From NCBI GenBank assembly GCA_038326365.1, contig JBBQJY010000001.1:12128-76127 (forward strand): a stretch of DNA of 64,000 nt. The letters run 5' to 3'. This document shows positions 2,710 to 25,931 of this stretch, piece by piece. The stretch is from Candidatus Curtissbacteria bacterium (GTDB lineage: Bacteria > Patescibacteriota > Microgenomatia > Curtissbacterales > GWA2-41-24). Positions within the stretch are counted from its first letter, which is position 1. Every line of letters starts with the position of its first letter. Both the position numbers and the translations under genes were made by a program. Below the pieces are notes generated by a model. It saw only the letters and a program-made list of their open reading frames with translations, had not been told where the DNA came from and did no database searches.

Positions 2710-3780
2710 GTGCATTTGACTACCCAAAATCTGCTTAAATTCTCATTTCTTGTTTCAGCTCTTTTTCTACTGAGCACAAAGCTCACATTTGCAACAGTGC
2801 CTTCGGTTGTGACACCGACAACGATCGATGAAAATACCGACCACGCGACTGTCCAATTTAGCGGCCTTAGCCCCAACACTGATTACGAATACTGTGGCGC
2901 CGACTCGCCTTCAACCTGCAATGCTAGGAAAAAAACCATCAAATCCGATAGCTCAGGAACAGTAATCATAGACAATCTGTGCGCGGCCGGAGAACACCTG
3001 CTTGAGCCAAAAAGTGGAGGTTGCGACTCGGGCGACTTCTTTTGGGGAGACAGAACTTACGCAATTAAACTATACACATCTTGGCCAAATGAAATCGGCA
3101 ATGCGTCATTCAAAGTAAAACGGGTTATACCTAGTTTCGATATTACTTCAGATAACGGCTTCAAACCGGGCTCAGCTATAACTGCAAAAGTAAAAGGTAG
3201 CAGAAGGCCGATTGATAGCCCTGACAGAAACGCTTACTTGTTAGAAATTACTGGCAGTCCAAACCCTAGCAATAATTCACTTAAGATTTTTGAGCTGAAT
3301 AACTCAGAAGGAGATTACACTTTTAGCACCCTTTCCATAGCTAGCGGAGACTACACAATATCTTTAACCGGCCAAAATCATGGTTCGGAAGACGGCTTTG
3401 ATTTTGGGAAGATAGGCTTCAAAATAGATACTGCTGGCGGTGGGATAACCAGCGGCAGTGGCCCAACCTCTGGCAGCAACGCAGGCGTTGGTTCCAATCC
3501 CTGTGGCACCACTTGCCCCACAGCCCTAGGCGACCTGCCTCTCAATTTTCAAGAACTCGTCAATACCAAAATCTTACCAGCGGCTATCGGCATGGCCGGC
3601 GGTATTGCCCTAATTCTTATGGTCATTGGCTCAATCAGGATGCTTATGTCCCAAGGCGACCAACAAAAGTTAAACGGCGGTCGAGAAATGTTTGTTGCTG
3701 CTCTGGCGGGTTTGCTTTTCCTAATCTTTTCGACTCTCATTCTCAGGTTTATCGGCATTAATATTATCGGTATAAAATGA
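2710..3780 (+). CDS. T4SS pilin-like protein (VirB2/TrbC-like C-terminal two-TM hairpin) with a roughly 250-aa N-terminal secreted domain
   Basis: Signal peptide, then a C-terminus ILPAAIGMAGGIALILMVIGSIRMLMSQGDQQKLNGGREMFVAALAGLLFLIF that shares the TM-[ST]xGD-x-K-x(3)-AR-x-TM motif of the five downstream paralogs. Confidence 0.5.
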   Translation: MHLTTQNLLKFSFLVSALFLLSTKLTFATVPSVVTPTTIDENTDHATVQFSGLSPNTDYEYCGADSPSTCNARKKTIKSDSSGTVIIDNLCAAGEHLLEPKSGGCDSGDFFWGDRTYAIKLYTSWPNEIGNASFKVKRVIPSFDITSDNGFKPGSAITAKVKGSRRPIDSPDRNAYLLEITGSPNPSNNSLKIFELNNSEGDYTFSTLSIASGDYTISLTGQNHGSEDGFDFGKIGFKIDTAGGGITSGSGPTSGSNAGVGSNPCGTTCPTALGDLPLNFQELVNTKILPAAIGMAGGIALILMVIGSIRMLMSQGDQQKLNGGREMFVAALAGLLFLIFSTLILRFIGINIIGIK

Positions 3781-4457
3781 AAAAACTCTTTATTTTTTTA
3801 TTGGCTTTTGTAGCTTTCCTTCAATTTTCTAATGCGAACATCGCTCATGCCCAAACAGGCTGCCCTGCCCCAGGCTGGACTATCAGAATTCTCAACGCTT
3901 CAGGAAATGATGTAGATGTAGACTTTAGCGGCAAGCCAGCTGGCCACTTAAGCGTTGTGCATATCAGTGGATTTAAGGGTAATTATGACCTACCAATACC
4001 CGATGGCGCTCTCGATATTCATTTCCATGGGATAGATGACATTTACGCAGCAACTATGGTCTTTGCAGGCTGCAATATTTCGAATACTACTAGCTTTACC
4101 ATGCCTCCCGGTGGTGCTGGCCTACCCGGTGGTGGAGGCGGCAAGGCAACCCAATGCGGCTCGTTCGATGCATGTACATCAGGCGGTTTGGCCCCATCAG
4201 GTTTTTCAACCCAAAGCTTTATTACTCAACTCATCACCAAAATTCTTCCAATCGTCATCGGCGTTGGTGGATTCCTGGCAATCATTATGATACTTATTTC
4301 GGCAACACAATTTATAACCTCAAGCGGCAATCCAGAAGCGGCAGCAAGCGCCCGCGGCCGCCTCATTTTTGCAATTGTCGGCTTTGCACTCTTGATCTTG
4401 GCCTTTGCCATAACCAAAGTCATAGACCAAATATTTCTCAAAAGTGGAGCCATTTAA
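3777..4457 (+). CDS. T4SS pilin-like protein (VirB2/TrbC-like) with an N-terminal extracellular domain
   Basis: Signal peptide and C-terminus LISATQFITSSGNPEAAASARGRLIFAIVGFALLILAFAI. The start overlaps the upstream stop by 4 nt (ATGA). Confidence 0.5.
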   Translation: MKKLFIFLLAFVAFLQFSNANIAHAQTGCPAPGWTIRILNASGNDVDVDFSGKPAGHLSVVHISGFKGNYDLPIPDGALDIHFHGIDDIYAATMVFAGCNISNTTSFTMPPGGAGLPGGGGGKATQCGSFDACTSGGLAPSGFSTQSFITQLITKILPIVIGVGGFLAIIMILISATQFITSSGNPEAAASARGRLIFAIVGFALLILAFAITKVIDQIFLKSGAI

Positions 4458-4465
4458 GAAAGAAC

Positions 4466-4792
4466 ATGTACATTCCCCATCTTGACGCTTATGCCGATTT
4501 CGACCTTGCCAGCCAATTCTCTCCTGCCGGAATACCCGGCCTTACAAGTTTAGGCGCACTGGCAACAATCATCGTTAAATTCTTAATTTCCATAGTCGGA
4601 ATTCTAGCTATTATTTTTATAATTATCGCCGGCATAAAAATAGTCAGCTCCGGCGGAGACTCCAAAAAATTAGACGGTGCTCGCGCAACTCTTACCTATG
4701 CTATTATTGGACTAGTTGTGGCAATTCTTGCGTTTGTAATCGTCAATATTGTGCAGAAATTCCTAGGCTCGACTGTCGCCATAACCTCATGA
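4466..4792 (+). CDS. T4SS pilin-like protein (VirB2/TrbC family), about 109 aa
   Basis: The ATG at 4466 follows the upstream stop at 4455-4457. The motif is IIAGIKIVSSGGDSKKLDGARATLTYAIIGLVVAILAF. The long N-terminal extension in the 4154 ORF has no protein-like character and overlaps the upstream gene. Confidence 0.55.
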   Translation: MYIPHLDAYADFDLASQFSPAGIPGLTSLGALATIIVKFLISIVGILAIIFIIIAGIKIVSSGGDSKKLDGARATLTYAIIGLVVAILAFVIVNIVQKFLGSTVAITS

Positions 4793-5130
4793 GACTCGCA
4801 GCTGGTATAGGCACAATCACTGCCCCGCCCGAACTTGCAAAAGCTAATCCTGTGGACCCGCAAGCATATGTTGCCGGTTTTGTCAGGAACGGCATCAGCC
4901 TACTTTTAATTGTTGCTTTCATCCTTTCTTTTCTATTTACAATTATCGCCGGCATCAAGTTTGTAACCTCCGGAGGTGACGAAAAGGCTGTTTCTAGTGC
5001 CTGGTCTTCAATTTATTACGGCTTTATTGGGATGCTTATTGTAATCGGGTCATACGCTATTATAAGATTAATTGAGACCTTTTTTGGTGTTAGTATAATA
5101 TCAAGCGGTTTTCAACTGCCCACACCATAA
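4789..5130 (+). CDS. T4SS pilin-like protein (VirB2/TrbC family)
   Basis: Motif TIIAGIKFVTSGGDEKAVSSAWSSIYYGFIGMLIVIGSYAII. There is a 4-nt overlap with the upstream gene. Confidence 0.55.
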   Translation: MRLAAGIGTITAPPELAKANPVDPQAYVAGFVRNGISLLLIVAFILSFLFTIIAGIKFVTSGGDEKAVSSAWSSIYYGFIGMLIVIGSYAIIRLIETFFGVSIISSGFQLPTP

Positions 5131-5160
5131 AGTGCAAAAACAAAGGGGGTGAAACAAAAT

Positions 5161-5568
5161 ATGTTTGCGAAAATCAAAAAATTAGCCATACCATCAGTGG
5201 GTCTAGGTTTGCTACTATCAGCACCCGGATCCATCTTTGCGCAAGCAATTGGCGGAGGCGGAGCACTAGTTCCTACCGAAATTGCCCCAATTAATGACAT
5301 TGTCCAAGTAATTAGAAATGCTATCAGATTCATTTTGCTGATCGCTTTTGTCTTGGCATTTATATTCTTAATTATCGGCGGTATTCGCTGGATAACAGCT
5401 GGAGGAGACGAAAAAGCAGTCTCAAGCGCTCGCGGTATGATAACAGCAGCACTTATCGGATTAGTCGTAGTTCTAGTTTCATATGCACTCATCGTACTTG
5501 TCGAAACATTCTTTGGTGTCCATATTATCTCTGGCCCAATCACTATTCCGCAGGTTACTGATAAATAA
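5161..5568 (+). CDS. T4SS pilin-like protein (VirB2/TrbC family) with a signal peptide
   Basis: ATG at 5161 preceded by aaggggg. Signal peptide ends LLLSAPGSIFAQA, then LIIGGIRWITAGGDEKAVSSARGMITAALIGLVVVLVSYALIVL. Confidence 0.55.
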   Translation: MFAKIKKLAIPSVGLGLLLSAPGSIFAQAIGGGGALVPTEIAPINDIVQVIRNAIRFILLIAFVLAFIFLIIGGIRWITAGGDEKAVSSARGMITAALIGLVVVLVSYALIVLVETFFGVHIISGPITIPQVTDK

Positions 5569-5599
5569 AGCAGGGCTCATCACGGCTCAGTTAGCAGTT

Positions 5600-5911
5600 A
5601 TGCTAACTGCTCAAGCTATGGTCAGTCCTGCTTATGCGGCGCCACCAACTATCCACGACATCCAGACGATTTTTCAAAACATCATTGGGCTGCTCGCCCC
5701 TGCAACAGCGGTTGCCTTTTTAATAATGCTAATAGTTGGCGGCTTTAAATTTTTAACCTCCGGCGGTGACCCAAAAGCAGTAGGCAGTGCCCGCAGTACA
5801 ATGACTTACGCTATTCTCGGAGTTATCCTGGTTGTTGCCTCTTGGTTAATCCTAGTTCTTGTAAAAGAAATCACAGGCTACGACGTCACCACGTTCAAAT
5901 TGCCTTTCTAA
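5600..5911 (+). CDS. T4SS pilin-like protein (VirB2/TrbC family) with a signal peptide
   Basis: ATG at 5600 lies downstream of the previous stop at 5568. Signal-like MLTAQAMVSPAYAAPP, then LIVGGFKFLTSGGDPKAVGSARSTMTYAILGVILVVASWLIL. The 5483 start would overlap the upstream gene by 86 nt. Confidence 0.5.
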   Translation: MLTAQAMVSPAYAAPPTIHDIQTIFQNIIGLLAPATAVAFLIMLIVGGFKFLTSGGDPKAVGSARSTMTYAILGVILVVASWLILVLVKEITGYDVTTFKLPF

Positions 5912-5956
5912 AGCCGGTATTGCCAAGTACAAACTTCTCTCTGTTATACTAATTTC

Positions 5957-8900
5957 ATGCCTGTCCACAAGGACGTACTGTCCAAAGCAAAAAGGCCCAA
6001 GTCAAAGCCATGGCTAGGTATCATATTCATCGCTTTGCTCATATCCATCAACCTCTCAATTTTTACCTCAGCAGTACAAGCCGCTCCTGGAGGCGCCCCT
6101 GCTCCCCAACCCTGTTTTAACCCTGAACCCGTCTACGTTAAAGACGCAGGCGGTAATTTTGTTCTCGACGCCAACGGCCAAAAAGTAGAAAACCTTACGG
6201 ACAACTATTTAACGGACACCAATGGTGACCCTCTCGGACCGGAAGAAACAGACAATAAACTTACTAATCCTGAAGCACTCAAGTTCACAATTGTCTATAC
6301 AGGTCATAAAGGAGATCTTGTTCACTTAACAAAAAGAAATCAAGTTAAAGTCGATTTTTCCAAGCTTCAGGCAATTTTTGGCGCCCCCAACTCTAACTTT
6401 GCAGATGGCGGCGCTCAAAGCATCGACCATGCCCAAACAAACTTAATGGGTCTTAAAAATCCTCTCATATACCAGGGCCCGGCACAAAAAGCAGTATTCA
6501 AAGTGCTGACCGATGCTCAACGCATAAAATACGTTAAATACGTTTATGACAAACCCGAACTTGGAGAATCTGGCACAAAGTTTACAGATTACAACGGCCA
6601 AGATCCTAAAAACATTCACGAATTAGTGGGTGCATTTTCCCTACCCAGCCCACCTCCAGCCGGCACCACAGACCAGCATTGGCTGGATACTTGGGCAAAG
6701 TATTGGGAAAAACTACCCACTACGTACAACGAATTTACAATTGGTAAATTGGAGTTTCGAGAGCTACATGGCCTCCAATTAATCGAAAACGTCAAGAAAG
6801 GAGTCGACAATTCCTGCAGCAAATTTAATCCACTAAGAACTGTCGAATTTCCCGTACCCAACTTTTTTCGGACAGCCGCAACTTCAGGCGCACTAAACCA
6901 AGTTCTTGTCCCCAAAACCGCCCAAAGCGACCAGAATGATCTCTTGGACATCAAAGGTGCAGTTCTCGGTGTTAAAACTTCTACCTTGGATTTTTTACAG
7001 TATTGCATCAAATTTGCCCAAAAAAACCCTGTCTCCCAGGCCATCAAAAAAGTTATTAGCTTAGGAACCCAATCTATCAAAAGTTCTTATATTGCTTATG
7101 CGGCTTGGAACCTCAATTTGGCCAGCGTTGGTTCAAATTCAGCCCGCTTCACTTTCGACCCACCAGGCAACGGCAATTTTGGACTTGTTGCCAAAAACAA
7201 TAGTACAGGTCAAACATGGGACAGTGGTGCAATCTCAAATGGTACGTCGAGTGTCACCTTTAATGGCCTCACCCCCGGCAATTATCGCGCTGTGCTTATA
7301 TTTGCTACCTCCGAAATAAGCAATGCAGTCACTTTCGATATCAACTCGGCCGATCCTTCTCCTCAGCCAACATCAAGCTGGACACTTAGCGTTCAAGCCT
7401 CTCCCATTAGGGGTTCAAACGTCCGGTTTGACTACAATCCTGAAGCCAATAGCGTCATGGCGCTCATCGTCTATGACCAAAACAACAACACCGTTACCGA
7501 TTCAGGCTCAATAGACCGCAGCACAACTTGGACTTGGACAAATGCCAGACCAGGTGTTTACCACGCCCAATTATTCGCTTACGGTATCGCACCTGTTTCC
7601 AATGTTGTCAATTTTGAAGTCCAATGGCTCTTAAATAACCCCACTGTCGACATTAGACCGCTGGCCGGAATAAACAACGTCAACTTCACTTTTGCCCCCC
7701 AGGGCAACAACGACGGCGCCAATCTCTCTCTTTTAACTTATGTCAATACAACTCCCCGAGGCACTGCCTTTTATGACAGCGCCGTCTCTGGCGTAAATCT
7801 AAATGGTCAAACCTCCCATGCATTGCCTCTTAACAAAGTTCGCTGGGGAAAATGGGTGGCGGTCCTCATTAAAGGCTTAAGTGCAGTTTCCAATGAAGTT
7901 ACTTACGAAGTTCCCTACGTTTTAGAAGTAGAAAACAACTCGGGCTCCGTAACATTCCATTACGGACCCCCACTCCATATTGGCCCTCCTTCGGCAAATG
8001 CCATGGCCATTATTGTCAAAAGAAAATATATCGACAAAGTCGTCTGGGACAGCGGACCCCTAGCTCTTGATTCAACCTCTGTCCACTGGACCGATAACGC
8101 CCAACCCGGAGACATGGAAGCTTGTCTTCTTTACGATGGCAAGACCGAGCTCAGCGCCCACAATTTAGTTTGCAAGCCCATCAGCGTTTCCACCAATTAC
8201 CCCTGGAAAATTATTACTCTGGACAAAGACAAATCTTGCATAAAGGTTTCCGGCTCCGGCAAAGCAGGCAACGCTCCATTCTGCGCCATCTACCCAACTA
8301 AATTTGAACCCTCCGTCAAAGGCCAAACAAACGTTTTCCCGGGCGAATGTGCCGACCCTAACCCTAGCCGCTATAAACTAAACGACCAATCCAATGTCGT
8401 TTGCACATTCACTTTCGACTGGGACTCTTCAAAATTCGACGGTATTCCGGACAAAGAACTGCGTCTTCCCGCTTCCGGCCCCGGCAATTGGGACAAATGC
8501 GATTATGCGGGTGATTTCGTCACTTGCTATTTAACTGTCGGAATCTGGCCCGATTTTAGGGTTCCATTCTTAGCACAATCTTGGAACAACACTCAATTTT
8601 CAAATAAAGATGAGGTCTTGCCCACCCTTCAAGAAACAGGCCGTCCCGGCTATTACACATTTGGTCAACCAAAAGCTGTGGCCGAATATGATCCGCTGCA
8701 AGAGCTGGTCAACAACTGTGACCCGGCAATTCCCGGTTCCCAAGCCTGCAAGGACTTGGTCAATAAAGTCACCAGTGGTGATTACCCAACCAAATATCCA
8801 GGTCTTAGCGATTGTGTAACCAGTTACCTTATGCAATTACCCCAATTAGTTACCTGCATTAAAGGTGTCGCCAGCCTTATCCCCAAAAACCTGCCAGGTC

Positions 8901-9577
8901 AAGTCGATTCATCAACGCTGGGTGCAAGCACCGGACCAAGTGGATCTGTCCTAGGCACGGCTACAGACCAAAAAGAGCGTTTTATTGGTGCTGTGGACTG
9001 TGGTAAACATCTCACCCGCGATATTTCTCTCAAGCCCCTAGTCCTGCAAAAAGAATTAGGAGTTAAATTTGATTGCGACCTGTCAACATCAAGCGAAACA
9101 CCTCCCAATGGAGCACCCCCTCCTCCACCAGGAGGCGGTACGCCGACGCCGACGCCACCACCTCCTCCACCAGGAGGCGGTACGCCGCCAACTACAAATG
9201 ATTGTTCAGGGAAATATAACCTAAGCACAAACCCGCTTAACGACAATTTCGGCGACCCTTCTTGTGATTTTTCCGAAAGCCAACTTTATGATCTTCTCAG
9301 ATCTCTTGATCCAAGCCGTGCAGACTATTGGTTCTTTACCATAGTCCCTTGCGAAAGTGTTTATAACTCAAACAATTACAACGGGGCTTCTACTAGTGGC
9401 TCAGCATGGGGTCTATATCAAATGGGTCACGAAGCCTATCCGACGCTTGGAATCCCACGACAAATGAACTCCCCTTTCGATCGCGGTGATGTCGATTGGC
9501 GTCTGCAAACCAGCAATGCCGTAAACTATAATAATGGCCTGGGTAATACCTTTGACTACTGGGGTTGCGCAACATGA
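5957..9577 (+). CDS. Large membrane-anchored surface protein with a C-terminal lytic transglycosylase (SLT/VirB1-like) domain after a proline-rich linker
   Basis: N-terminal TM segment, then a roughly 1000-aa extracellular region rich in Thr/Ser/Asn. The linker is PPNGAPPPPPGGGTPTPTPPPPPPGGGTPP. The C-terminus CESVYNSNNYNGASTSGSAWGLYQMGHEAY matches the SLT catalytic E-S ... GLMQ pattern. Confidence 0.65.
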   Translation: MPVHKDVLSKAKRPKSKPWLGIIFIALLISINLSIFTSAVQAAPGGAPAPQPCFNPEPVYVKDAGGNFVLDANGQKVENLTDNYLTDTNGDPLGPEETDNKLTNPEALKFTIVYTGHKGDLVHLTKRNQVKVDFSKLQAIFGAPNSNFADGGAQSIDHAQTNLMGLKNPLIYQGPAQKAVFKVLTDAQRIKYVKYVYDKPELGESGTKFTDYNGQDPKNIHELVGAFSLPSPPPAGTTDQHWLDTWAKYWEKLPTTYNEFTIGKLEFRELHGLQLIENVKKGVDNSCSKFNPLRTVEFPVPNFFRTAATSGALNQVLVPKTAQSDQNDLLDIKGAVLGVKTSTLDFLQYCIKFAQKNPVSQAIKKVISLGTQSIKSSYIAYAAWNLNLASVGSNSARFTFDPPGNGNFGLVAKNNSTGQTWDSGAISNGTSSVTFNGLTPGNYRAVLIFATSEISNAVTFDINSADPSPQPTSSWTLSVQASPIRGSNVRFDYNPEANSVMALIVYDQNNNTVTDSGSIDRSTTWTWTNARPGVYHAQLFAYGIAPVSNVVNFEVQWLLNNPTVDIRPLAGINNVNFTFAPQGNNDGANLSLLTYVNTTPRGTAFYDSAVSGVNLNGQTSHALPLNKVRWGKWVAVLIKGLSAVSNEVTYEVPYVLEVENNSGSVTFHYGPPLHIGPPSANAMAIIVKRKYIDKVVWDSGPLALDSTSVHWTDNAQPGDMEACLLYDGKTELSAHNLVCKPISVSTNYPWKIITLDKDKSCIKVSGSGKAGNAPFCAIYPTKFEPSVKGQTNVFPGECADPNPSRYKLNDQSNVVCTFTFDWDSSKFDGIPDKELRLPASGPGNWDKCDYAGDFVTCYLTVGIWPDFRVPFLAQSWNNTQFSNKDEVLPTLQETGRPGYYTFGQPKAVAEYDPLQELVNNCDPAIPGSQACKDLVNKVTSGDYPTKYPGLSDCVTSYLMQLPQLVTCIKGVASLIPKNLPGQVDSSTLGASTGPSGSVLGTATDQKERFIGAVDCGKHLTRDISLKPLVLQKELGVKFDCDLSTSSETPPNGAPPPPPGGGTPTPTPPPPPPGGGTPPTTNDCSGKYNLSTNPLNDNFGDPSCDFSESQLYDLLRSLDPSRADYWFFTIVPCESVYNSNNYNGASTSGSAWGLYQMGHEAYPTLGIPRQMNSPFDRGDVDWRLQTSNAVNYNNGLGNTFDYWGCAT
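9119..9187 (+). repeat. Perfect 27-nt direct repeat (cctcctccaccaggaggcggtacgccg) occurring twice with a 15-nt spacer, encoding a PPPGGGTP linker repeat
   Basis: The two identical copies at 9119-9145 and 9161-9187 are read directly from the sequence. Confidence 0.8.
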
Positions 9578-10068
9578 ACCTGCCGCAAAATCAAAAAACA
9601 TTTCAAGTAATAATAATCGCCGTTGTCTTTTTCCTACTGGCCATGATTTTCGGCATTTTCCTAACCCAGACCGGCAAGAGCACAAAACCCGCAGCCACCA
9701 ATAAAATTGTGCCCCCTCAAGTTTCACCCGCATCTTTGCCAAAAGAAACAAAAGACCTCAAAAGCAAACTGATTTCAAAGCCTCTTAAAAATAACAAAGG
9801 CGATTTACTGCTTTATGAATCAACCAATTTTTATGTTGAATACATCACTTCTCCCCAAGTCTTTTTCGTCAAAATTGCAAAGGACGTCAACAACTCCAAA
9901 AAGCAGGCGACAGAATGGTTCATCGCACAAGGCGCAACCGGCCAAGATATGTGCAATCTGCCTGTTCGATTCATTCTATCTACTCTGGAAGCCCGCCAAG
10001 AAGACCCAAAATTTACAAGCCTGCCGGATGGCTGCACAGGACAACCGATTTCAAAACCCACTAAATAG
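9565..10068 (+). CDS. Hypothetical membrane-anchored protein (single N-terminal TM)
   Basis: N-terminal hydrophobic helix VIIIAVVFFLLAMIFGIFL. It overlaps the stop of the upstream gene. I recognise no domain. Confidence 0.45.
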   Translation: MRNMNLPQNQKTFQVIIIAVVFFLLAMIFGIFLTQTGKSTKPAATNKIVPPQVSPASLPKETKDLKSKLISKPLKNNKGDLLLYESTNFYVEYITSPQVFFVKIAKDVNNSKKQATEWFIAQGATGQDMCNLPVRFILSTLEARQEDPKFTSLPDGCTGQPISKPTK

Positions 10069-10096
10069 CTAAATTGACACAATTTAACAAGGGCAG

Positions 10097-10830: not shown

Positions 10831-11021
10831 AGTGTTAACCTAAATTAAATATTTACTCCATCGCGGGGAAGCGTAGCGAAAATCTACCACTGTACCGCAA
10901 CGGTAACTCAAAAAAGAGAAGTCCGAATACCACGATGGCTAACTAGGTCCCGAGATAGGACACATGCCCATTGCGCACAATGATTGCAAGCCTTCTTGAG
11001 GACTATCAAGGAGGTTTTTTT

Positions 11022-12164: not shown

Positions 12165-12217
12165 ACCTGCCTTGACTATCGCCTAAATTGTCCCTAATAT
12201 TGATTTAGAGTTTGTCC

Positions 12218-13993: not shown

Positions 13994-13994
13994 T

Positions 13995-17213: not shown

Positions 17214-17308
17214 GTCGACAAGTTTAATAGAGAAAGCTCCATTTGCCTTGACTCTTGCCTAACAATTAGCTAACAAGAAGAAAAAGACCTTATAATTGGA
17301 ATTACGCA

Positions 17309-18586
17309 ATGGGAACATTTGAATTACAATTTCCAGGAAATTTTCGCCAGGCAGAAATCGACAAGATTTTGACCTTTGTACAAACCGGCAAATTTTGCCA
17401 ATTAATTTCTACCCCTGGAAGCGGAAAAGCGACTCTTCTGAGGCTGTTGGCCTACAATCCCAATGTTTTAAAATTTCATTTGAAAGAAAAGGGAGCTTCT
17501 ATTAATTTCATTTATCTAAATCTTTTAGACCTTGAAAACTACCAAGAGATTGAAATTCTCAAATACATCCTGCTTGCTCTGAACCAAAAAGCGCAAAGCG
17601 ATGACCTTCTGGCACTAAACAAACAATTAATGGAAATTGTTCACCAGCAAGCAAGCCTTGGCCAAACTACAGTTTTTCTCTTTGACCATTTTGACGAGTA
17701 TCAGAATCAGTTACCTCCGTCGTTTTTTCAGCTTCTAAGGAGTGCGAATAGACAAGCAAGATACAAATTTTCCACCGTCTTTGCAACCAGAAGAGATCTA
17801 GCAGAGTTAGTTGACCCAACAACGATCAAAGATTTTTATGATTTTTTTACTGACAACGCTATTTATATGAAGATCTATGACCCATCCGCCATAGAATTTA
17901 TGGTCTCGCAAATTGAGGCTATATTTAAAAAGAAGATCCCCATAGCGGACAAAGCAAGCATTATTCACCAAACGGGAGGCCATACTAAACTAACGAAGAT
18001 AGTGACAGAAATGCTTATACGCCAAAATCTGTCTCTAGATAATCAGCTGCTTACGAAACCAACAATTTCTTCTACCCTCCAAGAGCTGTGGCTTTTCTTA
18101 ACAGCCCAAGAACAGCAGACCCTCTATCAAATTGCCAATGACGAATACAAAAATCAGCCAGACGAAACAAATAAACTAGAAGCCTTTGGTCTTGTCAAAC
18201 GAAACCAAACACCAGCTAAGGGTTTTGAATTAACCATCCCTTTATTTAAAGAATACATAAAGAACACTATCCCTCAGCTCACCCCAGAAAAGATTACATA
18301 TAACGAGCAAACCAGAGAGATAACCAAAGGTGCAAAAATAATCTCTGATTTGCTTTCGCCTCAAGAAAACCGCTTGCTCAAGTTTTTAATCGAAAATCAA
18401 AACAAGGTTATTCAAAGAGACGAAATCATCAAAGCCGTTTGGCTAGACTCTCAAAATGCCCAAGGCATCTCCGACGAGGCAATTGATCAAATGATTTTTA
18501 GGCTCAGAAAAAAAATTGAAGATGATCCCAACCAACCAGAACGACTGTCAACCGTAAAAGGTCAAGGTTTTCGCTTCAAAGCTTAA
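17309..18586 (+). CDS. Putative transcriptional regulator: N-terminal P-loop NTPase domain fused to a C-terminal OmpR/PhoB-type winged-helix DNA-binding domain
   Basis: Deviant Walker A ISTPGSGKATLL and Walker-B-like TTVFLFDHFDE. The C-terminus QENRLLKFLIENQNKVIQRDEIIKAVWLDS...IDQMIFRLRKKIEDDPNQPERLSTVKGQGFRF is a textbook OmpR-family trans_reg_C fold. Confidence 0.6.
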   Translation: MGTFELQFPGNFRQAEIDKILTFVQTGKFCQLISTPGSGKATLLRLLAYNPNVLKFHLKEKGASINFIYLNLLDLENYQEIEILKYILLALNQKAQSDDLLALNKQLMEIVHQQASLGQTTVFLFDHFDEYQNQLPPSFFQLLRSANRQARYKFSTVFATRRDLAELVDPTTIKDFYDFFTDNAIYMKIYDPSAIEFMVSQIEAIFKKKIPIADKASIIHQTGGHTKLTKIVTEMLIRQNLSLDNQLLTKPTISSTLQELWLFLTAQEQQTLYQIANDEYKNQPDETNKLEAFGLVKRNQTPAKGFELTIPLFKEYIKNTIPQLTPEKITYNEQTREITKGAKIISDLLSPQENRLLKFLIENQNKVIQRDEIIKAVWLDSQNAQGISDEAIDQMIFRLRKKIEDDPNQPERLSTVKGQGFRFKA

Positions 18587-18590
18587 TACT

Positions 18591-20420
18591 TTATGCAGAA
18601 AACTTAGCCTCTGCTTCTTGCGCTTTTTTGCGCATCTCCAGAAGCTCTTCCGGGTTTGTTGTGACTAATGAGTGCTCCTCAGGTGAAGCAATTACTCGAA
18701 TCGCCACGTGATTTGGCCCGGCAAAAAATATTCCTTCTCCAACGTCTGCCGCCAAAAGCAAATGCCGCTCTCCTTCAGTCAGATAAAAAACGTCAGTCAG
18801 TTTATCAATAGCAGCCGGCGATTGCTTCATCAGTATCTGAATTGACGAGTTAGTAACAATAGCCTTCCCGTAGTCGGTTTCCAAAAAGTCTTCGACGTCC
18901 TGAGAAATTGTTGTCAGGCCTAGGTAATATTTTCTTGCCCGCTTGGCAATGGAGTACATAAACGTTGCGCTGTCCGGATGCTGCATCATATACCAAGCCT
19001 CGTCCACAATTAATATTCTCTTCCTGATGTCATTTTTAATGCGCGTCCAGATAAAGTCTAAAATTAGATATATGGCAATAGGTCGCAAAGATTCTTCCAT
19101 GTTTTTAATTGAAAAAACAGTAAAAGTATTCCTAATGTCTAAGTTTGAATGCTGGTTAAAAATACCGATTAAGGACCCCTTAACGAACTTCTCGAGCCGG
19201 TCCGCAAGTCCCTTGGCTGCTTCTTCCTCCATCCCCAAAAAAGCTTTATAAAGGTCTTCCATCAGCGGTGGCTCATTTTTCTGACTAGCCGGCTCCGGCG
19301 TTATTCCTTTAGCTTTATAAGTTGCAACCAGAGCCCTGTCTAAAATTGCGTCCTCAGTCGGCGTCATCGCACCCATTATCACTTTAAAAAATCCGTGCAG
19401 TGAAAGTATTTTGAGCCCCAATTCGTTTTCACCCTCTTCGTATACTCCCGAAAGGTCAAATGGATTAATCTTCACCTGGCTATCAAAATCAAAAGAAATG
19501 TATTCCCCGCCAATTGCCTCACAAAGATTTTTGTATTCTTCCTCCGGGTCAATGACAATTATTTCTGTTCCGAACATCAAAGACCTCAAGGCTTCCAGCT
19601 TAACCATGTAAGATTTTCCGGCACCGGACTTCGCAAAAATTACCGAATTAGCATTTTCTTGAGTAAACCGATCAAAAATTACCAGCGACCCGTTGTGTTC
19701 GTTAATCCCATACATAATGCCTGTGCTGGAAGTTAAGGACGAAGAAATAAATGGGAATGTTGTCGCCAAGCTAGTCGTATCCATATTTCTGGTGATATAT
19801 AGGTGGTCTGTCGCCTGTGGCAACGTAGTTTTAAACGCTTCTTCCATTTGCAACGAAGCGTGTTTGGGAACCAAAAGCAGTGCTCCCATTGTCGACTCCA
19901 CTTGCTTACAAATTGTATTTAACTCTTCCAATGTTTCGGCCGGAACTGAAACATAAAGCCCGAATTGGAAAAAACGCTCAGAACCTTTTACCAACTCTTC
20001 CTGTAAAACTTGCGCATCCTCCAAAGCCGCCGAAACGGTCGGATCAATTACGTGGCCATGCTGAATATCAGAAGCAATCGTCGCCTCCATTTCCGTAATT
20101 TTGCGCTTCAAGTCATCAAGCACACCTTTGGCCTCAACCGGATACTGATACATGGATATTTCCAATGTGTGTTCGAAGTTAATAAGCGGCGAGAGCCAAT
20201 TAGCCTGCACATATCGAGGATAACCAACTACGAATAGTGTCCGCCAATAAGTCGATCCGATTTTGATGTAGTCGAAATCAATCTCAATGGCCGGCGGCGC
20301 AATAATGTCTTTGACTGAGACCACTCCTCGAGCCAAAGTACTAGCCCATTGTTGCTCTTTTGCAGTCAAACCCAAATCGGCATTTTTTTCCTTTTTCCCA
20401 AAGATATTAATTATATTCAT
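18591..20420 (-). CDS. virB4: VirB4/TrbE/ConE-family T4SS ATPase
   Basis: Walker A SVIFAKSGAGKSYMV and the VirB4-type Walker B RILIVDEAWYMM. The N-terminus DYIKIGSTYWRTLFVVGYPR is typical of Gram-positive-type VirB4. Length is 609 aa. Confidence 0.8.
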   Translation of the reverse strand: MNIINIFGKKEKNADLGLTAKEQQWASTLARGVVSVKDIIAPPAIEIDFDYIKIGSTYWRTLFVVGYPRYVQANWLSPLINFEHTLEISMYQYPVEAKGVLDDLKRKITEMEATIASDIQHGHVIDPTVSAALEDAQVLQEELVKGSERFFQFGLYVSVPAETLEELNTICKQVESTMGALLLVPKHASLQMEEAFKTTLPQATDHLYITRNMDTTSLATTFPFISSSLTSSTGIMYGINEHNGSLVIFDRFTQENANSVIFAKSGAGKSYMVKLEALRSLMFGTEIIVIDPEEEYKNLCEAIGGEYISFDFDSQVKINPFDLSGVYEEGENELGLKILSLHGFFKVIMGAMTPTEDAILDRALVATYKAKGITPEPASQKNEPPLMEDLYKAFLGMEEEAAKGLADRLEKFVKGSLIGIFNQHSNLDIRNTFTVFSIKNMEESLRPIAIYLILDFIWTRIKNDIRKRILIVDEAWYMMQHPDSATFMYSIAKRARKYYLGLTTISQDVEDFLETDYGKAIVTNSSIQILMKQSPAAIDKLTDVFYLTEGERHLLLAADVGEGIFFAGPNHVAIRVIASPEEHSLVTTNPEELLEMRKKAQEAEAKFSA

Positions 20421-20429
20421 ATCGAAGAT

Positions 20430-21527
20430 TTATCCTATTTTCTGCCCCCCAACAACGTTTTGCACTGGAACAGTCGCAATTCCGGCGTTTACCGCACCTC
20501 GCATCTGGCTGGCTCGGGCAATTGCTTCCTGTAAGTCATTTAGCGCTTGCGACGATTGGCCTGGGACCGAAGTGACAGCTGGCACAATAGGCGGCACATC
20601 TCCTTCTCCTGCAGCACTAGTTACGGACGTAGGCAAGATAATTGGTTGGGGCGTCGCAATTGGCGAAGGCACTTCGCCGACAAGCGGGCTTGCGGCGCTT
20701 TGGGCCAATATTGGCTCCCCTGCAACTCCGGTATTGGCAATAACCGGAGGTTGAGCATACTGACCCGCACCTGATTCAATTGTAGGCTCAGCAACAACAG
20801 CAACCCGCACATCAGGCGCTTGAATCGGCACAGGCTCGGGCGCAGGTGTTGGAACCTCCACCGCCGGCTCCACCAGAGGAGTCGTGTAGCTTGCAGCATC
20901 AAGTATTACTCTCTGAGTTCCTGTCGGAGCAGGATTATAAATATCGTAATATAATTCGATTAGCTCTTGAGTCGTCAACTGTCTCGAGAAAAGTCCAAGT
21001 CGTGCAGTTTGCTTAATAATATGATCTCTCTTTGGCGCAAGCGCTGATTTGGCGTCAGCAATGAGCTCCGCCTTACCCTTGGCATTGTGAGAATCTGATT
21101 TCTTAAAACTCTTGACACCTAGCTCCAAAGGCGAAAAGTGCAATATCAAATAAAAACGCTTATCTAGAATTGTCTTTTGTTGAACTGTTGATTGAATAAA
21201 TTCCCTATAACTCTTTATCTGCAATCTGAGATCCGGATTGGGCTGATTTCTCTCAGCCTCAACTAAATGCTGATAGTAAGCTGTAATATCGGCTTTTTTT
21301 GAACGAATCAAAACCTGCAAAGGGAAGGTTAGTGAATTAAGTAGCGCGCCATAAGCATAAATCGTCGCATCCTGTTCGGCTTCCGAAAGAATATCAAAAT
21401 TTACGGCAGTTGTAGACATCACCATTGAAACCCAACCTGTTTTTATAATCACCAAGTCATCAGTAATGTCCTCAATATCCAAGTGATCCTGGGTGGAAGC
21501 CTTAATCTTATCGCCTGCAGAAGCCAT
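20430..21527 (-). CDS. Hypothetical protein translationally coupled between the VirB3-like and VirB4 genes, with a C-terminal tail rich in Pro/Ala/Val
   Basis: There is a 1-nt overlap with the upstream gene and a 9-nt gap to virB4. No TM segment. The PAPEPVPIQAP low-complexity tail is evident. Confidence 0.45.
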   Translation of the reverse strand: MASAGDKIKASTQDHLDIEDITDDLVIIKTGWVSMVMSTTAVNFDILSEAEQDATIYAYGALLNSLTFPLQVLIRSKKADITAYYQHLVEAERNQPNPDLRLQIKSYREFIQSTVQQKTILDKRFYLILHFSPLELGVKSFKKSDSHNAKGKAELIADAKSALAPKRDHIIKQTARLGLFSRQLTTQELIELYYDIYNPAPTGTQRVILDAASYTTPLVEPAVEVPTPAPEPVPIQAPDVRVAVVAEPTIESGAGQYAQPPVIANTGVAGEPILAQSAASPLVGEVPSPIATPQPIILPTSVTSAAGEGDVPPIVPAVTSVPGQSSQALNDLQEAIARASQMRGAVNAGIATVPVQNVVGGQKIG

Positions 21528-23101
21528 TAATTTTTCACTTGTCCCTGAAGCCCTAAGGGGGCCAAGATCTCTCCTTTCAAACTTATTGATGTCGGCACAA
21601 ACGATGCCTTCTCACTCTCAATTTCTATCGTGTAATTACCGTCAGAAAGCGGTGTGGCCGACAAAAATTGGCCCAACTTGTTTGTTTTTAAGGCGCGAAT
21701 CGGAATTCCACCAGCATCCCGAACAACCAGTACTGCTCCTTCAAGAGGCGTTCCAATGGAATCTGTTACCATCCCTGAAAGCACATTAGGATTACTGGTT
21801 AGAGGAATTATTTGGGCACCAATATTGTTGGCCACACTTTTAATCTGCTTTTTATCTGTTATCGAGAATTTTGTTTGATCATCATCTTTTCGCTTAGGCG
21901 CCTTTTGGGTCCCCTGGGCAACTGCAGCAACCATCCCACCCACAGCCTCCGGTGCTCTGACTTGGGCTTTGGGTAAAACCTGACTAAGATCGGCTTCTGT
22001 CAATTTGTTTGCAAACTGCACACTGCCCACAGTAGAGTTGGTTTCGTTGGGTAAAACCACCTGTGGTGTATCGTCCTCAAAATTAAACCTCCTTGCCAAC
22101 TCGTCAGAAATTTCAAACCGACGCTCACCTCGTATTGGCAGCTTAGAGAGATCAAAATTCTCAGGCGGAGCAAAGTGCAATTTTCTTACCCTAGTCTGAC
22201 CAACTCCCCGAACCAATCTTATTTTGTTGTCAGGCTCTTTTAAGGAGATAATATTGTCCACAGAAAAGTTTGTGTCAGATGCCAAATGGGAAAGTGGTGG
22301 CGACTTTTTTGGAACCGACTCCATCCTTCGACGTCTCAGTCTATCTTCCAGTCCTTTGATAACAAATGGTTGGGCATGTTTTGCAATTCTTGGTTCGGTT
22401 GCGCCAACTATCGGCAATTGTTTGCGATTCCCAACAACAACTTTCGACTTCTCGTCAAATGCTCGAATTGCAACTGGTGTTTCAATTTTGATGCTGTCCG
22501 GCCCAACCTCGCGCGGCACAGGTTGACCAACTTTTCTGCTTACTCCGCTATTCGTATTTTTTGCGCTTGGCCAAATAATCGGAGGCGGGACGCTTCCTGC
22601 CCCCACATCGTCTCCTCCCAAGTCCAACTGAAAAATTGCTTTGTCCTCACGCATGTCGAGCGGTGACTCGTTATCCTTAGGAAGAGATCTCAAATAAGCA
22701 ATCAGCCTTTCGCGCCCTCTTTCGGTTATTTCTTCCGGAATTTTTTGCTCTTGTGTCTGGGGACGTATAACTACACTCAGAAATTCTGGTAAATTTCTCT
22801 CCTTTACCCAAATTCGTTGCGTGGGCGCAAAAATTGCGTGAATAAAAGCAACGATCCACTTGTCAAATGGCCTTCCTTGCACCGGAACCAAAGCAACGAA
22901 CAACCCAATTCCGCCAATCAATACAGAAAGAGGAATCCTAACTATAGCAGCGGTTTGGGAGAAGAAAATAAAACCCGCTACAACCATCGGTCCTACTAAA
23001 AACATAAATTGCCTGACTGTTAAGTTGCCAAAAAGTTTAAACTGAAATGAAGCTATGTGCTGCGGGACAGGATGTTGTTCCATAGGTTTGAGTACCAGCA
23101 A
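21527..23101 (-). CDS. Membrane protein with a VirB3-like N-terminal two-TM region fused to a large extracytoplasmic region that ends in a CarboxypepD_reg-like beta-sandwich
   Basis: The N-terminus FGNLTVRQFMFLVGPMVVAGFIFF resembles the VirB3 L-x-RPA-hF-GVP motif. It is the first gene of the operon ending in virB4. Confidence 0.4.
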   Translation of the reverse strand: MLVLKPMEQHPVPQHIASFQFKLFGNLTVRQFMFLVGPMVVAGFIFFSQTAAIVRIPLSVLIGGIGLFVALVPVQGRPFDKWIVAFIHAIFAPTQRIWVKERNLPEFLSVVIRPQTQEQKIPEEITERGRERLIAYLRSLPKDNESPLDMREDKAIFQLDLGGDDVGAGSVPPPIIWPSAKNTNSGVSRKVGQPVPREVGPDSIKIETPVAIRAFDEKSKVVVGNRKQLPIVGATEPRIAKHAQPFVIKGLEDRLRRRRMESVPKKSPPLSHLASDTNFSVDNIISLKEPDNKIRLVRGVGQTRVRKLHFAPPENFDLSKLPIRGERRFEISDELARRFNFEDDTPQVVLPNETNSTVGSVQFANKLTEADLSQVLPKAQVRAPEAVGGMVAAVAQGTQKAPKRKDDDQTKFSITDKKQIKSVANNIGAQIIPLTSNPNVLSGMVTDSIGTPLEGAVLVVRDAGGIPIRALKTNKLGQFLSATPLSDGNYTIEIESEKASFVPTSISLKGEILAPLGLQGQVKN

Positions 23102-23363
23102 GAAGTTACATCAGAGGAACTACATTGTAAGGACGAATTCCATGAGACTTACAAATAGGACTGCTGATATGAATGCAAATTCTACCTCCGCCGCTAATCG
23201 AACTCACCATAACATATGAAACTCGTTCGTCAAAGACCATTAATTTAGCTTCCAAATTTAAGTTTTCACAACAAACTCATGTCTCCCAAAGATATGGTTA
23301 GGTCGACAATCGAAACATCATAAAAATTTCGTTTTGCTCATTTGATATAGTAGAAGTAATAAA

Positions 23364-25931
23364 ATGTCTGCCAAAACTAGTCAGCTTAAACAAATAAGAA
23401 CTCGGACAGAGAATTCTCTCCAGGATCTTCATCGCAATAAAAGAATAACAGAAGAAAGTATCGCAACCACCTCTTCACGCCTCAGAGATCTTAAAGAAGA
23501 ATACACTCAAGCAGCCTCAGCCGGGGCAAGCGAAAGTACTGGCCAGCTTTCAGAAAACATCAACACGCTTGAAGAAAACTTAAAATCCCTTAGTGAAAGT
23601 AAACAAAAAATCGAAGAAGCAGTTTATGAAAAATCAAAAGAGATTGAAAATCTTCATTCAGAAATAGCCAAGGTTGAAAACGAGCATGAATCGTCCGATT
23701 TTTCATTCGGATCTGACAAAAAAAGGGGGGGTCATATCAAAGAATCTGCACAAACGAAAGCTTCAGGTTTAGTAACTACAACCCAAGGCGTGAAGATTAA
23801 AAAGAGAAAATTGATTGGTTTCAGGGGTAGAACAATTCAAGGCACAGGTGCACTGGCACAAACTCCTCAAACCGCCACGGTCGGTCCATCATCAGGCCAA
23901 GTAAGCTACACCATTCAAACTAATACGGCCGCAGCCAGCCAAAACGTGAGCCCTCAAAATGCCGTCTCATCCTCCACAAACCTCTCAAATGTGGTCTCAG
24001 CCGGGAGTCCATTGGAATTAGCCAAAGCGGTAATCGGGGAGGGTAAAGCCACCATTGACGGCGTCATTGGCCAAGGAAGTAGCATCACAAGTATCCTTTC
24101 CAAGGGATCGGGTTTTAGCCCTCAAAGAAAAATCGGCCTTATTGCTCTAAAAGGGGGAGTAGTTGCCTCTCTTGGGGCTGGGCTGGCAGCAGCAGCTGTC
24201 ATCGCCTATTTTGCAAAATTGGGCGCCGCAGCCGCTCACGGTGCCGCAATTGGAGCAACAGTAGGAGGAGTGGCAGGAGCAACCTACGGCGGATTTTTAG
24301 GTTTCCAAGTCGGCGTCGCACTTGCTCCTTTCACCTTCGGACTATCGATTCCAATAGCAACTGCAGTGGGAGCAGCCTTGGGCGCAGGCGTCGGGGCTAC
24401 CGTTGGTGCTTTGGCGGGCGGGCTCATTGGCTTAGGAGTAGCTAGCGGCTCCGCAACAATTATCTCCACAGGAGTAGGGGCAGGCATCGGAGGAGTTATT
24501 GGTGCAGTCGCCGGAGCAACTCTCGGAGCAGCCGCAGTAGCCTGGATTCCTTTTATCGGGCCCTTTCTAGCTCCTTTTGGTGCAGTTATTGGAGCAACCA
24601 TCGGTGCAGCAGTGGGTGCGGCAATCGGTGCCGTCGCAGGATACTATATTGGAAAATATGTCTTACAACCTATCCAGGACAACCTGGAAACGGTCACGGG
24701 TTCAGTCGGAACAGCCTCAGGAGGGCTTGTCTACAGCTTTACAACATTTATCTCCTGGACTTTTAACCTTGTCGGCGGCTTTTTCTCCGGGCTTGTCGGC
24801 GGCGCGGGTATTGTGGGAGGAGCAACCATTGGTGCAGCAGCCTCACTTTGGAATGGGGCAATTGGAATCTTGGGTAATGCTACTGGTGCTCTGGCTAGTA
24901 TTGCGGACAAAGCGCTTGGGGCACTTTCCTCGCTTGGAAGTAGTGTTTCAAGCCTCACGCTACCCGCAGTGGGCACTGCATTCGGCACAGTAGTTACAGT
25001 TACTGCTGCAGCCAGCCTTATTACCAGCGCCACGGCTTTTACCCCGAAACTTGATCTTAGTTCTGAATTGCTCCAAAAACCAGGTGAAAACGACTTTTTT
25101 TCTATAACAAAAACTGCTTCACCGCAAACTCTTAGCTCAAAAGGGCCCGACGTTACATTTACGATCAGTGTTAACGCGAAGCAGAACATAAAAGATATCG
25201 GCTTCGTTGAAAACTTCCATTACCTACAGGGCGCAACAAACCAACCCTTAGTGGTGCCTAAAACATTAACTTGTACGTTACCCATTTTAAAAGGAGACAC
25301 CTGCACTGTTAATTTCACATTTTCTACTTCACCCCTACCAGACAATGTCTTGCTTATTAACACCGTTCTGGCTCATGTCACGATCGACAACAGCGCCAAT
25401 TCAGTCCAAGACGAGTCCGCAACAGCCATTGTCAAAATTGGTTCTCCGCCCACAAACTGTCCATCGGGTTGGCCAACACCAGCTGGTACTGTCACTCAGG
25501 GTATCCAAGGAACTACCTCGCACTACCGCCTATTCCCAGCGGAGCAGGCAATTGACATTGCTGGAGCCGCAAGCCGTGGGACCCCAACATTCACCACCTT
25601 CTCAGGCGTTGTAGCTACAAAAAATGACCAAACTGAGAACCCTGGGTATGGATACTTTGTTGATGTGACGGGTAACTGCAATGGGCAGACATTCACAGCG
25701 AGGTGGGCACACTTGGAAAGCATCAGCGCAGGCGTTCCCGATGTAGGTGAAACTATCAATACAGGAACAGAAATTGGGAAAATAGATGCCACAGGCCATG
25801 TTCTTTGCGACCCCCAACCTTGCGACCCTTCCCATTTGCACTATAGCTTTTTTGGTCTTGATATGAAAACGCCATATATTCCTCAAGACCCCATAGCAAT
25901 TTGTGATGGTGATTGTGGGGTGAGCTGGTAA
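23364..25931 (+). CDS. Membrane protein with an N-terminal coiled coil, a roughly 300-aa Gly/Ala-zipper hydrophobic region and a C-terminal M23/LytM peptidase domain
   Basis: The C-terminus EIGKIDATGHVLCDPQPCDPSHLHYSF matches the M23 Gx(I/V)G..G.TG.xxGPHLH signature. The central region is (GAxxG)n-rich. Confidence 0.6.
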   Translation: MSAKTSQLKQIRTRTENSLQDLHRNKRITEESIATTSSRLRDLKEEYTQAASAGASESTGQLSENINTLEENLKSLSESKQKIEEAVYEKSKEIENLHSEIAKVENEHESSDFSFGSDKKRGGHIKESAQTKASGLVTTTQGVKIKKRKLIGFRGRTIQGTGALAQTPQTATVGPSSGQVSYTIQTNTAAASQNVSPQNAVSSSTNLSNVVSAGSPLELAKAVIGEGKATIDGVIGQGSSITSILSKGSGFSPQRKIGLIALKGGVVASLGAGLAAAAVIAYFAKLGAAAAHGAAIGATVGGVAGATYGGFLGFQVGVALAPFTFGLSIPIATAVGAALGAGVGATVGALAGGLIGLGVASGSATIISTGVGAGIGGVIGAVAGATLGAAAVAWIPFIGPFLAPFGAVIGATIGAAVGAAIGAVAGYYIGKYVLQPIQDNLETVTGSVGTASGGLVYSFTTFISWTFNLVGGFFSGLVGGAGIVGGATIGAAASLWNGAIGILGNATGALASIADKALGALSSLGSSVSSLTLPAVGTAFGTVVTVTAAASLITSATAFTPKLDLSSELLQKPGENDFFSITKTASPQTLSSKGPDVTFTISVNAKQNIKDIGFVENFHYLQGATNQPLVVPKTLTCTLPILKGDTCTVNFTFSTSPLPDNVLLINTVLAHVTIDNSANSVQDESATAIVKIGSPPTNCPSGWPTPAGTVTQGIQGTTSHYRLFPAEQAIDIAGAASRGTPTFTTFSGVVATKNDQTENPGYGYFVDVTGNCNGQTFTARWAHLESISAGVPDVGETINTGTEIGKIDATGHVLCDPQPCDPSHLHYSFFGLDMKTPYIPQDPIAICDGDCGVSW

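Follow-up and report, generated by a model that had tools for sequence, protein, structure and literature searches.

We identified a chromosomal type IV secretion system (T4SS) locus at positions 2710-25931 of a 64-kb stretch of DNA from a Candidatus Curtissbacteria bacterium (contig JBBQJY010000001.1, positions 12,128 to 76,127; hereafter the window). The cluster lies directly to the left of dnaN on the chromosome of a member of the Patescibacteria (Candidate Phyla Radiation, CPR). Domain searches with Pfam and NCBIfam covered the scanned open reading frames (ORFs) of the window, and the relatives used for comparison were 80 species-level genomes, titled Curtiss-, Shapiro-, Chisholm-, Beckwith- and Woesebacteria, that were gathered by VirB4 identity. 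An earlier, sequence-only reading of the window had named a set of secretion, pilus and regulatory genes, and Pfam/NCBIfam matches and translations place all of them where that reading did. Its VirB4, VirB3-like fusion protein, M23 peptidase and NTPase-winged-helix regulator were each confirmed by Pfam/NCBIfam. Its proposal of a candidate novel system, as opposed to a known T4SS, did not hold. All testable features that define the published Patescibacteria T4SS, set out below, were found in the locus. Judged by its sequence, the locus is an example of this known system, and what novelty is left lies in its accessory proteins.

The motor block consists of three genes:

18591..20420, minus strand: VirB4 ATPase of the MPF-FATA (mating-pair formation, class FATA)/CD1110 type, without the usual N-terminal domain of about 200 amino acids (aa).
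20430..21527, minus strand: TrsD-like protein; aa 1-230 correspond to the detached VirB4 N-terminal domain, and the tail is rich in Pro/Ala/Val.
21527..23101, minus strand: PrgI/VirB3-like membrane protein (aa 11-97) with a long linker and a C-terminal CarboxypepD_reg-like beta-sandwich.

The VirB4 protein scores 378 bits with the NCBIfam model conju_CD1110 (cut-off 325) over model positions 180-733 of 752 and matches Pfam P-loop_TraG at 1.7e-28. Walker A (SGAGKS) and Walker B (ILIVDE) motifs are visible in its translation, and it aligns with residues 222-772 of PrgJ from plasmid pCF10 at 25% identity (E 9e-44). Because the neighboring TrsD-like ORF matches the N-terminal part of VirB4, and VirB4 itself covers only the model and PrgJ ranges just given, the N-terminal domain is read as a separate gene. 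For the TrsD-like protein, the NCBIfam TrsD model gives 3.8e-7 and the VirB4_plasma model 3.6e-5 (model positions 99-278), both below the trusted cut-offs; its ortholog in genome L161 has the Pfam TraC-like domain PF26593. An hhalign comparison of the TrsD-like profile with the single PrgJ sequence gave no significant match. A split-off VirB4 N-terminal domain (TrsD) has been reported earlier for the phylum (PMC12102498). The third protein scores 34.1 bits with PF12666 (cut-off 27) and matches PF13620 at 4.9e-6.

In the window, as in L001, L002 and L005, the PrgI-TrsD-VirB4 block (18591-23101) points the opposite way to the VirB6-like and M23 genes described below. The block is co-oriented with these genes in most other Curtissbacteria genomes (compared: L003, L004, L006-L012). 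Inverted repeats flanking the inversion were not found beyond matches of chance length.

The motor block is widely conserved. VirB4 is 63-91% identical in the 80 Patescibacteria/Microgenomates genomes compared with 25% to PrgJ of pCF10; its placement in a clade is by nearest neighbors. The TrsD-like gene is immediately upstream of virB4 in 74 of the 80 genomes and PrgI is present in 72. Synteny across related genomes, which had been proposed as a check, shows the PrgI-TrsD-VirB4 trio in 72-74 of the 80. The genes dnaN and dnaA lie within 10 kb of the locus in 59 of these genomes, and the gene order beside dnaN-dnaA is common to dozens of Microgenomates genomes. Across the 80 genomes and for the same loci, the median identity of VirB4 is 68%, that of DnaA/DnaN 35%. 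These values suggest very strong purifying selection on the VirB4 ATPase, and conservation so far above that of DnaA/DnaN fits an essential role. The cluster is, by all appearances, vertically inherited.

The title 'uncultured Gammaproteobacteria' or 'Pseudomonadales' is attached to many public metagenome-assembled genome (MAG) records that contain the locus (L002, L012-L025 and others), in which VirB4 is 70-86% identical and the dnaA synteny is retained. Clostridia, Bathyarchaeia, Nevskiaceae and Limisphaerales are the titles of one MAG record each. Such titles look unreliable.

The left end of the locus is an array of pilin genes next to a divergently transcribed SpoIID-like gene:

932..2584, minus strand: SpoIID-like peptidoglycan-remodelling protein (Pfam SpoIID, 8.1e-20) with an N-terminal anchor and a coiled coil.
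2710..3780, plus strand: pilin 1, 356 aa; signal/anchor, extracellular domain of about 250 aa, C-terminal VirB2-type hairpin (hydrophobic helices 288-306 and 327-345); PF18895 E 0.0036, BLASTP against pilin 5 1.2e-7.
3777..4457, plus strand: pilin 2, 226 aa; N-terminal beta-sandwich module, then the pilin hairpin; PF18895 7.6e-9.
4466..4792, plus strand: pilin 3, 108 aa; PF18895 7.5e-8, weak TrbC match.
4789..5130, plus strand: pilin 4, 113 aa; PF18895 0.0041; 46% identity to pilin 5 (E 1.2e-22).
5149..5568, plus strand: pilin 5, 139 aa; PF18895 5.9e-7.
5483..5911, plus strand: pilin 6, 142 aa as an ORF; PF18895 1.8e-9, TrbC/VirB2 PF04956 2.1e-6 (28.3 bits, cut-off 27.9).

Six VirB2/TrbC-like pilins had been claimed for this region, and the count stands. 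The Pfam T4SS_pilin family (PF18895) matches all six ORFs at 2710-5911 with E values of 1.8e-9 to 4.1e-3; four are above the gathering cut-off, and those at 2710-3780 and 4789-5130 are below it. A hairpin of two hydrophobic helices is found in every one. The six are paralogues with 23-46% pairwise identity, and the array is 13-16 kb away from virB4. For the start of pilin 3 we follow the gene annotation of an identical public contig (L081), the mechanical ORF beginning at 4154, and the true start of pilin 6 is probably further downstream than the ORF start. A type IV pilus or Tad system was ruled out by the VirB2-type pilins and by the absence of PilB/PilC-like matches in the locus.

The six-pilin array adjoining a SpoIID gene recurs in relatives. 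The SpoIID-like gene lies beside the pilin array in the same divergent arrangement in more than 25 related metagenome loci, and it is also found in L160. Its product may also serve the system in cell-wall remodelling, although its membership is uncertain.

Three large proteins encoded between and beyond these blocks are associated with the membrane, the cell surface and the cell wall:

5957..9577, plus strand: anchored surface protein, 1206 aa; four tandem beta-sandwich repeats, a proline-rich linker and a putative lysozyme-like or soluble lytic transglycosylase (SLT)-like C-terminus.
12212..13993, plus strand: VirB6-like polytopic protein, 593 aa; signal/anchor, poly-Gly linker, membrane bundle, Gly/Ala-rich tail.
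23364..25931, plus strand: M23 endopeptidase protein, 855 aa; coiled-coil N-terminus, glycine-zipper membrane segments, C-terminal M23 domain.

The polytopic protein has a fibronectin type III (FN3)/Ig-like domain at aa 37-111, the poly-Gly linker noted by the sequence-only reading at aa 113-129, and a helical membrane bundle at aa 142-520. The same reading called it VirB6-like. Fold and topology bear this out, since the best PDB fold match of its predicted structure is DotA and TrwI/VirB6 also match. Sequence comparison does not. Only 1 of 17 orthologs matched Pfam TrbL (E 0.16), the profile had no relevant match among PDB sequences, and hhalign against PrgH gave a probability of 0.6%. The model thus supports a VirB6-like protein as judged by fold and topology rather than by sequence.

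The VirB1-like lytic transglycosylase of the earlier reading is the C-terminus of the 1206-aa protein, and here the case is weaker. The repeats of about 95 aa span aa 371-750 and the 124-aa C-terminal domain occupies aa 1083-1206. No Pfam or NCBIfam match was found for the protein, the C-terminal domain has no Pfam or PDB match, and a word-indexed search for homologues of this domain came back nearly empty. However, six orthologs of the C-terminus keep the motifs CES, AWGL(Y/F)QMG and NA(V/I)NY(N/K)N. We take CES, GL(Y/F)Q and NYN to resemble SLT signatures, and Pfam SLT touches one of the six orthologs weakly (0.0093). The VirB1-like assignment is thus weakly supported. The 1206-aa protein shows no similarity to PrgK, and its gene is kept after the pilin array in relatives.

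For the M23 protein, PF01551 scores 32.8 bits (cut-off 28.7), glycine-zipper matches are present and the HLH motif is visible. The gene occupies the same position in relatives, and its product is the predicted cell-wall hydrolase of the system. In Southlakia epibionticum, a peptidase and a lysozyme encoded next to virB4 are essential (PMC12102498).

A beta-sandwich (FN3/Ig-like) module of about 95 aa is shared by three of the surface components. The 1206-aa protein has four copies of it, while pilin 2 and the VirB6-like protein each have one N-terminal copy; the pilin 2 module matches repeat 371-465 of the 1206-aa protein at 1e-5. This sharing, together with six divergent pilins, two of which carry extra surface domains, would suit a pilus that serves only for adhesion or anchoring, with a VirB2 filament and Ig-like surface proteins attaching the epibiont and no substrate passing through. 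Multiple VirB2 paralogues are thought to widen host-surface interactions in Bartonella and Anaplasma (PMC12102498). However, adhesion and motility already depend on type IV pili in the Patescibacteria examined to date (PMC12857230), and alongside the ATPase the locus retains a VirB6-like channel protein and two wall hydrolases. A purely adhesive function therefore seems improbable to us.

The locus is bounded on its right by housekeeping genes:

27281-28426, minus strand: dnaN.
28641-29972, minus strand: dnaA.

Beyond dnaA follow rnpA, yidD, yidC and jag, and then cell-envelope and housekeeping genes to 64 kb; the other large ORFs of the window were judged to be housekeeping genes from their translations. 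At its left edge the window encodes a glycosyltransferase-like membrane protein. Domains of VirD4, VirB11, a relaxase or a recombinase were absent from every scanned ORF of the window, in agreement with the sequence-only reading, and neither a coupling protein nor an integrase was detected across the 64 kb by Pfam/NCBIfam. The window also contains no tRNA gene. In the closest metagenomic relative (L084, a 1.15-Mb contig) the next 10 kb past the window's left end hold smpB, a comF-like gene and glycosyltransferases, and no relaxase, type IV coupling protein (T4CP) or integrase. The ordinary integrative conjugative element (ICE) that such genes just outside the window would have signalled is thus not seen in this flank.

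These results bear on the possibility that the locus is an ICE or its decayed remnant, serving DNA conjugation now or formerly. The VirB4, PrgI and TrsD families are typed on Firmicutes conjugative plasmids and ICEs, and pCF10 has the same order of PrgI, VirB4 and hydrolase genes. However, the parts of an ICE that would process, couple and integrate DNA are missing from both the window and the flank of L084, as is a tRNA target from the window, and the locus has a fixed place beside dnaN-dnaA in most of the 80 genomes. Conservation of VirB4 above DnaA is the opposite of what is expected of a decaying mobile element. Relaxases occur in only 103 of 3,035 surveyed genomes and rarely near virB4 (PMC12102498). 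We regard an ICE, intact or decayed, as very hard to sustain. The cluster is, as far as its protein families indicate, derived from monoderm MPF-FATA conjugation machinery and lacks the conjugation-specific parts. A chromosomal, Gram-positive-style T4SS or pilus of a CPR episymbiont, as the sequence-only reading had it, agrees with the MPF-FATA (CD1110) VirB4, the lack of a relaxase, T4CP and integrase, and the shared dnaN-dnaA gene order. A phage origin was ruled out, as there were no PHROG matches.

The placement of the cluster next to the replication origin is borne out by the adjoining dnaN, dnaA, rnpA and yidC genes but not by DnaA boxes. Neither the region 28000-31000 nor the whole window contains a cluster of boxes of the E. 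coli consensus (13 matches at no more than one mismatch, 15 expected). Cumulative GC skew drops steadily up to about 50 kb and does not locate the exact origin. Given the lack of a box cluster and the falling skew, proximity to the origin follows from gene context alone. Scans for promoters and terminators gave results at shuffle level only.

The remaining genes of the locus encode a regulator and several proteins of which most have no family match:

9565..10068, plus strand: single-transmembrane protein, 167 aa; hydrophobic helix 15-33.
10097..10795, plus strand: secreted or lipoprotein-like protein, 232 aa; poorly conserved.
10971..12164, plus strand: cytoplasmic protein, 397 aa, with a C-terminal four-Cys zinc ribbon.
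13995..17213, minus strand: soluble cytoplasmic protein, 1072 aa, of a narrow family.
17309..18586, plus strand: NTPase (AAA_22/STAND-like) with an OmpR/PhoB-type winged helix (Trans_reg_C 7e-19, AAA_22 1.1e-5, NACHT-like matches).
25913..26947, plus strand: single-transmembrane protein, 344 aa; hydrophobic helix 20-38; its start overlaps the end of the M23 gene.

The sequence-only reading had found about half of the proteins of the locus unrecognizable. One of these, at 20430-21527, is the TrsD-like protein described above, while those at 9565-10068, 10097-10795, 10971-12164, 13995-17213 and 25913-26947 are still without an assignment. The NTPase-winged-helix gene is a putative regulator of the locus. 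It lies beside T4SS genes in eight related genomes and is absent from L001 and L161.

The two single-transmembrane proteins, at 9565-10068 and 25913-26947, are candidates for a VirB8-type component on the basis of their one transmembrane helix; neither matches Pfam, PrgL or PDB sequences in a way that would identify it. The first has no match in Pfam, NCBIfam or PHROGs, and its orthologs occupy the same position in L084, L005 and L001. The second, which has no Pfam or PrgL match and only a weak cystatin-like match in the PDB (0.0094), is kept after the M23 gene in six genomes and is possibly, at a guess, a VirB8/TcpC-like analogue. The 232-aa protein had no family match, and only marginal matches to it were found in L001 and L084. 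The 397-aa protein matches nothing in Pfam or the PDB except zinc ribbons. Five of its cysteines (C368, C371, C386, C389 and C397) are invariant in six orthologs, and the gene is kept beside the VirB6-like gene in relatives.

The soluble 1072-aa ORF of the sequence-only reading is present. Its product has no match in Pfam, NCBIfam or PHROGs, and a word-indexed homologue search was nearly empty. An exhaustive HMMER search of 1.84 billion proteins found only 85 cluster representatives of the family. All of the members inspected for context lie within a Microgenomatia T4SS locus, and members at about 25% identity still adjoin the VirB6-like gene. Where the contig is long enough, the gene sits between the VirB6-like gene and PrgI-TrsD-VirB4. 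The protein is only 22-37% identical in relatives whose VirB4 is 80-91% identical, and yet the C-terminal 440 residues of 59 family members hold invariant polar residues. Its predicted structure is confident, with no informative fold match in the PDB and no recognized toxin or enzyme fold.

These properties are relevant to the reading of the locus as an effector-export machine, with the 1072-aa protein as an effector injected into a host bacterium. Such a protein might well be soluble, encoded inside the locus in all contexts checked and diverging far faster than the machinery, as this one is, and effector delivery is the commonest speculation in the literature on Saccharibacteria (PMC10633639; PMC11665869). 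However, the locus has no coupling protein that could recruit substrates, neither a toxin nor an enzyme fold was recognized, and the invariant C-terminal residues and fixed gene position would suit a part of the machine or an enzyme equally well. We consider effector export unlikely, though it is the strongest of the rivals. The 1072-aa protein could instead be a substrate-handling or coupling factor that replaces the missing VirD4, or else cargo. The available parts of the literature on the Patescibacteria T4SS contain no description of this family as a component, and it is a speculative, rather doubtful suggestion that the protein defines an undescribed one. If that suggestion holds, the zinc-ribbon protein at 10971-12164 would be a second.

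Three features outside the locus were recorded. A 100-aa ORF directly downstream of dnaN (26940-27242, minus strand) has a sub-threshold match to the helicase-loader family DciA (E 2.8e-4; 21.5 bits, cut-off 24) and is kept at the same place in relatives; it marks where the T4SS locus gives way to housekeeping genes. At 38601-41009 (minus strand), unassigned ORFs of 530, 153 and 133 aa follow one another amid housekeeping genes with no visible tie to the T4SS, and the 530- and 153-aa ORFs have no Pfam match. Another M23 peptidase, a small one (253 aa, E 2e-25), is encoded beside a PEGA+SH3 surface protein at 55818-57555. In S. epibionticum a PEGA-domain protein (SEML1_0005) adjoins the T4SS locus.

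It is very probable, in our judgment, that the locus is a Patescibacteria T4SS with a non-conjugative role in contact with the host. From the gene content, we infer a pilus-bearing conduit between epibiont and host and not a machine for conjugation. PrgI would dock the TrsD and VirB4 motor to the membrane at the VirB6-like platform. Pilins would reach the membrane via Sec, to be extracted by VirB4 and polymerised into a VirB2-type tube like that of conjugation systems. The M23 peptidase, the putative lysozyme-like domain and perhaps the SpoIID-like neighbor would open the peptidoglycan. The beta-sandwich modules on pilin 2, the VirB6-like protein and the 1206-aa protein probably mediate surface contacts. 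The finished tube would join the epibiont to the host cell and carry macromolecules.

In which direction it might carry them is a matter of weighing. A role for the T4SS in nucleotide acquisition has been proposed, in an account that calls its function completely unknown (PMC11665869). A preprint on the first Microgenomatia strain brought into culture describes tubes 'that may be T4SS pili' reaching the host envelope, along with the acquisition of host RNA (bioRxiv 10.64898/2026.06.21.733656). Because the cluster has no coupling protein or relaxase, resembles the archaeal Ced system in outline, and has a parallel in the tubes and host RNA uptake of this preprint, we tentatively favor the uptake of host cytoplasmic material, for example nucleic acids, over effector export and over adhesion only.

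The Patescibacteria T4SS is essential in the sole species tested and is a leading candidate route by which these cells may obtain host material. Little is new at the level of the system, as its type, the pilin arrays, the missing relaxase and the origin-proximal place have all been published. The window is a well-resolved example from the Curtissbacteria, with a VirB6 candidate at the level of fold where sequence searches found few. It adds a PrgI-TrsD-VirB4 block that is near-universal in relatives and above DnaA in conservation, and it flags the conserved 1072-aa protein and the zinc-ribbon protein as candidate locus-specific parts.

The chromosomal T4SS of Patescibacteria has been described as having an MPF-FATA VirB4, a TrsD-like neighbor, PrgI, pilin arrays, no relaxase and a place near dnaA/dnaN (PMC12102498; PMC10633639; PMC12857230), and a 2025 review places it among new members of the T4SS superfamily (PMC12857230). 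Quinonero-Coronel et al. (2025) surveyed 3,035 genomes and found a monophyletic VirB4 clade nested in MPF-FATA, arrays of 2-11 VirB2 genes, particularly frequent in Microgenomatia and Saccharimonadia, and, in Microgenomatia, T4SS genes close to dnaA/dnaN (PMC12102498). The window shares with the system of that survey the MPF-FATA VirB4, the adjoining TrsD-like gene, PrgI/VirB3 and M23-type hydrolases. It also shares a divergent VirB2-like array (identities of about 25%, up to 54%, in the survey and 23-46% in the window), the absence of a nearby relaxase or T4CP, and a chromosomal position near dnaA/dnaN/rnpA. The survey found VirB6 homologues to be scarce in Microgenomatia, and 22.6% of VirB3 homologues there to be near virB4. 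In contrast, a PrgI-like gene precedes TrsD-VirB4 in 72 of the 80 relatives examined here, and encoded nearby is a conserved polytopic protein whose predicted fold is VirB6/DotA-like. The 1072-aa, 397-aa and regulator genes were not found discussed in the part of the survey available to us.

A close parallel is found in S. epibionticum ML1 (SEML1_0006-0019; Wang et al. 2023, PMC10633639), whose T4SS genes, the six pilins included, are essential for epibiotic growth (PMC10633639; PMC12857230). Its locus follows the same plan at a similarly short distance, a few genes, from dnaA. It encodes a lysozyme, a large hydrolase, VirB4, a protein some 290 aa long, PrgI, a VirB6-like membrane protein of large size and exactly six VirB2-like pilins, and it too lacks a relaxase or coupling protein. 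However, S. epibionticum belongs to the class Saccharimonadia, its VirB6-like protein is 1088 aa long, and it has a second, 998-aa membrane protein and a recognizable NTF2-like (VirB8-like) protein. In the portion of its description available to us, no counterpart of the 1072-aa, zinc-ribbon and NTPase-winged-helix proteins is seen.

The Prg/Pcf system of pCF10 has in common with the window the order PrgI, VirB4 (PrgJ) and cell-wall hydrolase, a VirB4 of the CD1110 family and a monoderm plan without outer-membrane core proteins. It differs in that it has no VirB2 pilins but encodes surface adhesins, the VirD4-like PcfC, and a relaxase together with MobC. The window, on its side, has six pilins, no DNA-processing genes, a VirB4 that is 25% identical and has its N-terminal domain as a separate gene, and no detectable similarity to PrgH, PrgK or PrgL.

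The archaeal DNA importer Ced and ComB of H. pylori are T4SS-derived uptake machines with a reduced set of parts that have a VirB4-like ATPase and a polytopic membrane protein, lack a relaxase and transfer inward; Ced also has VirB2-like pilins. Membership in Ced was ruled out, as the window's VirB4 scores 35.6 bits with the CedB model (cut-off 700) and 31.4 with CedD (cut-off 600), far below its 378 bits with CD1110. In outline only, the locus may work like the uptake machines of the Ced and ComB type.

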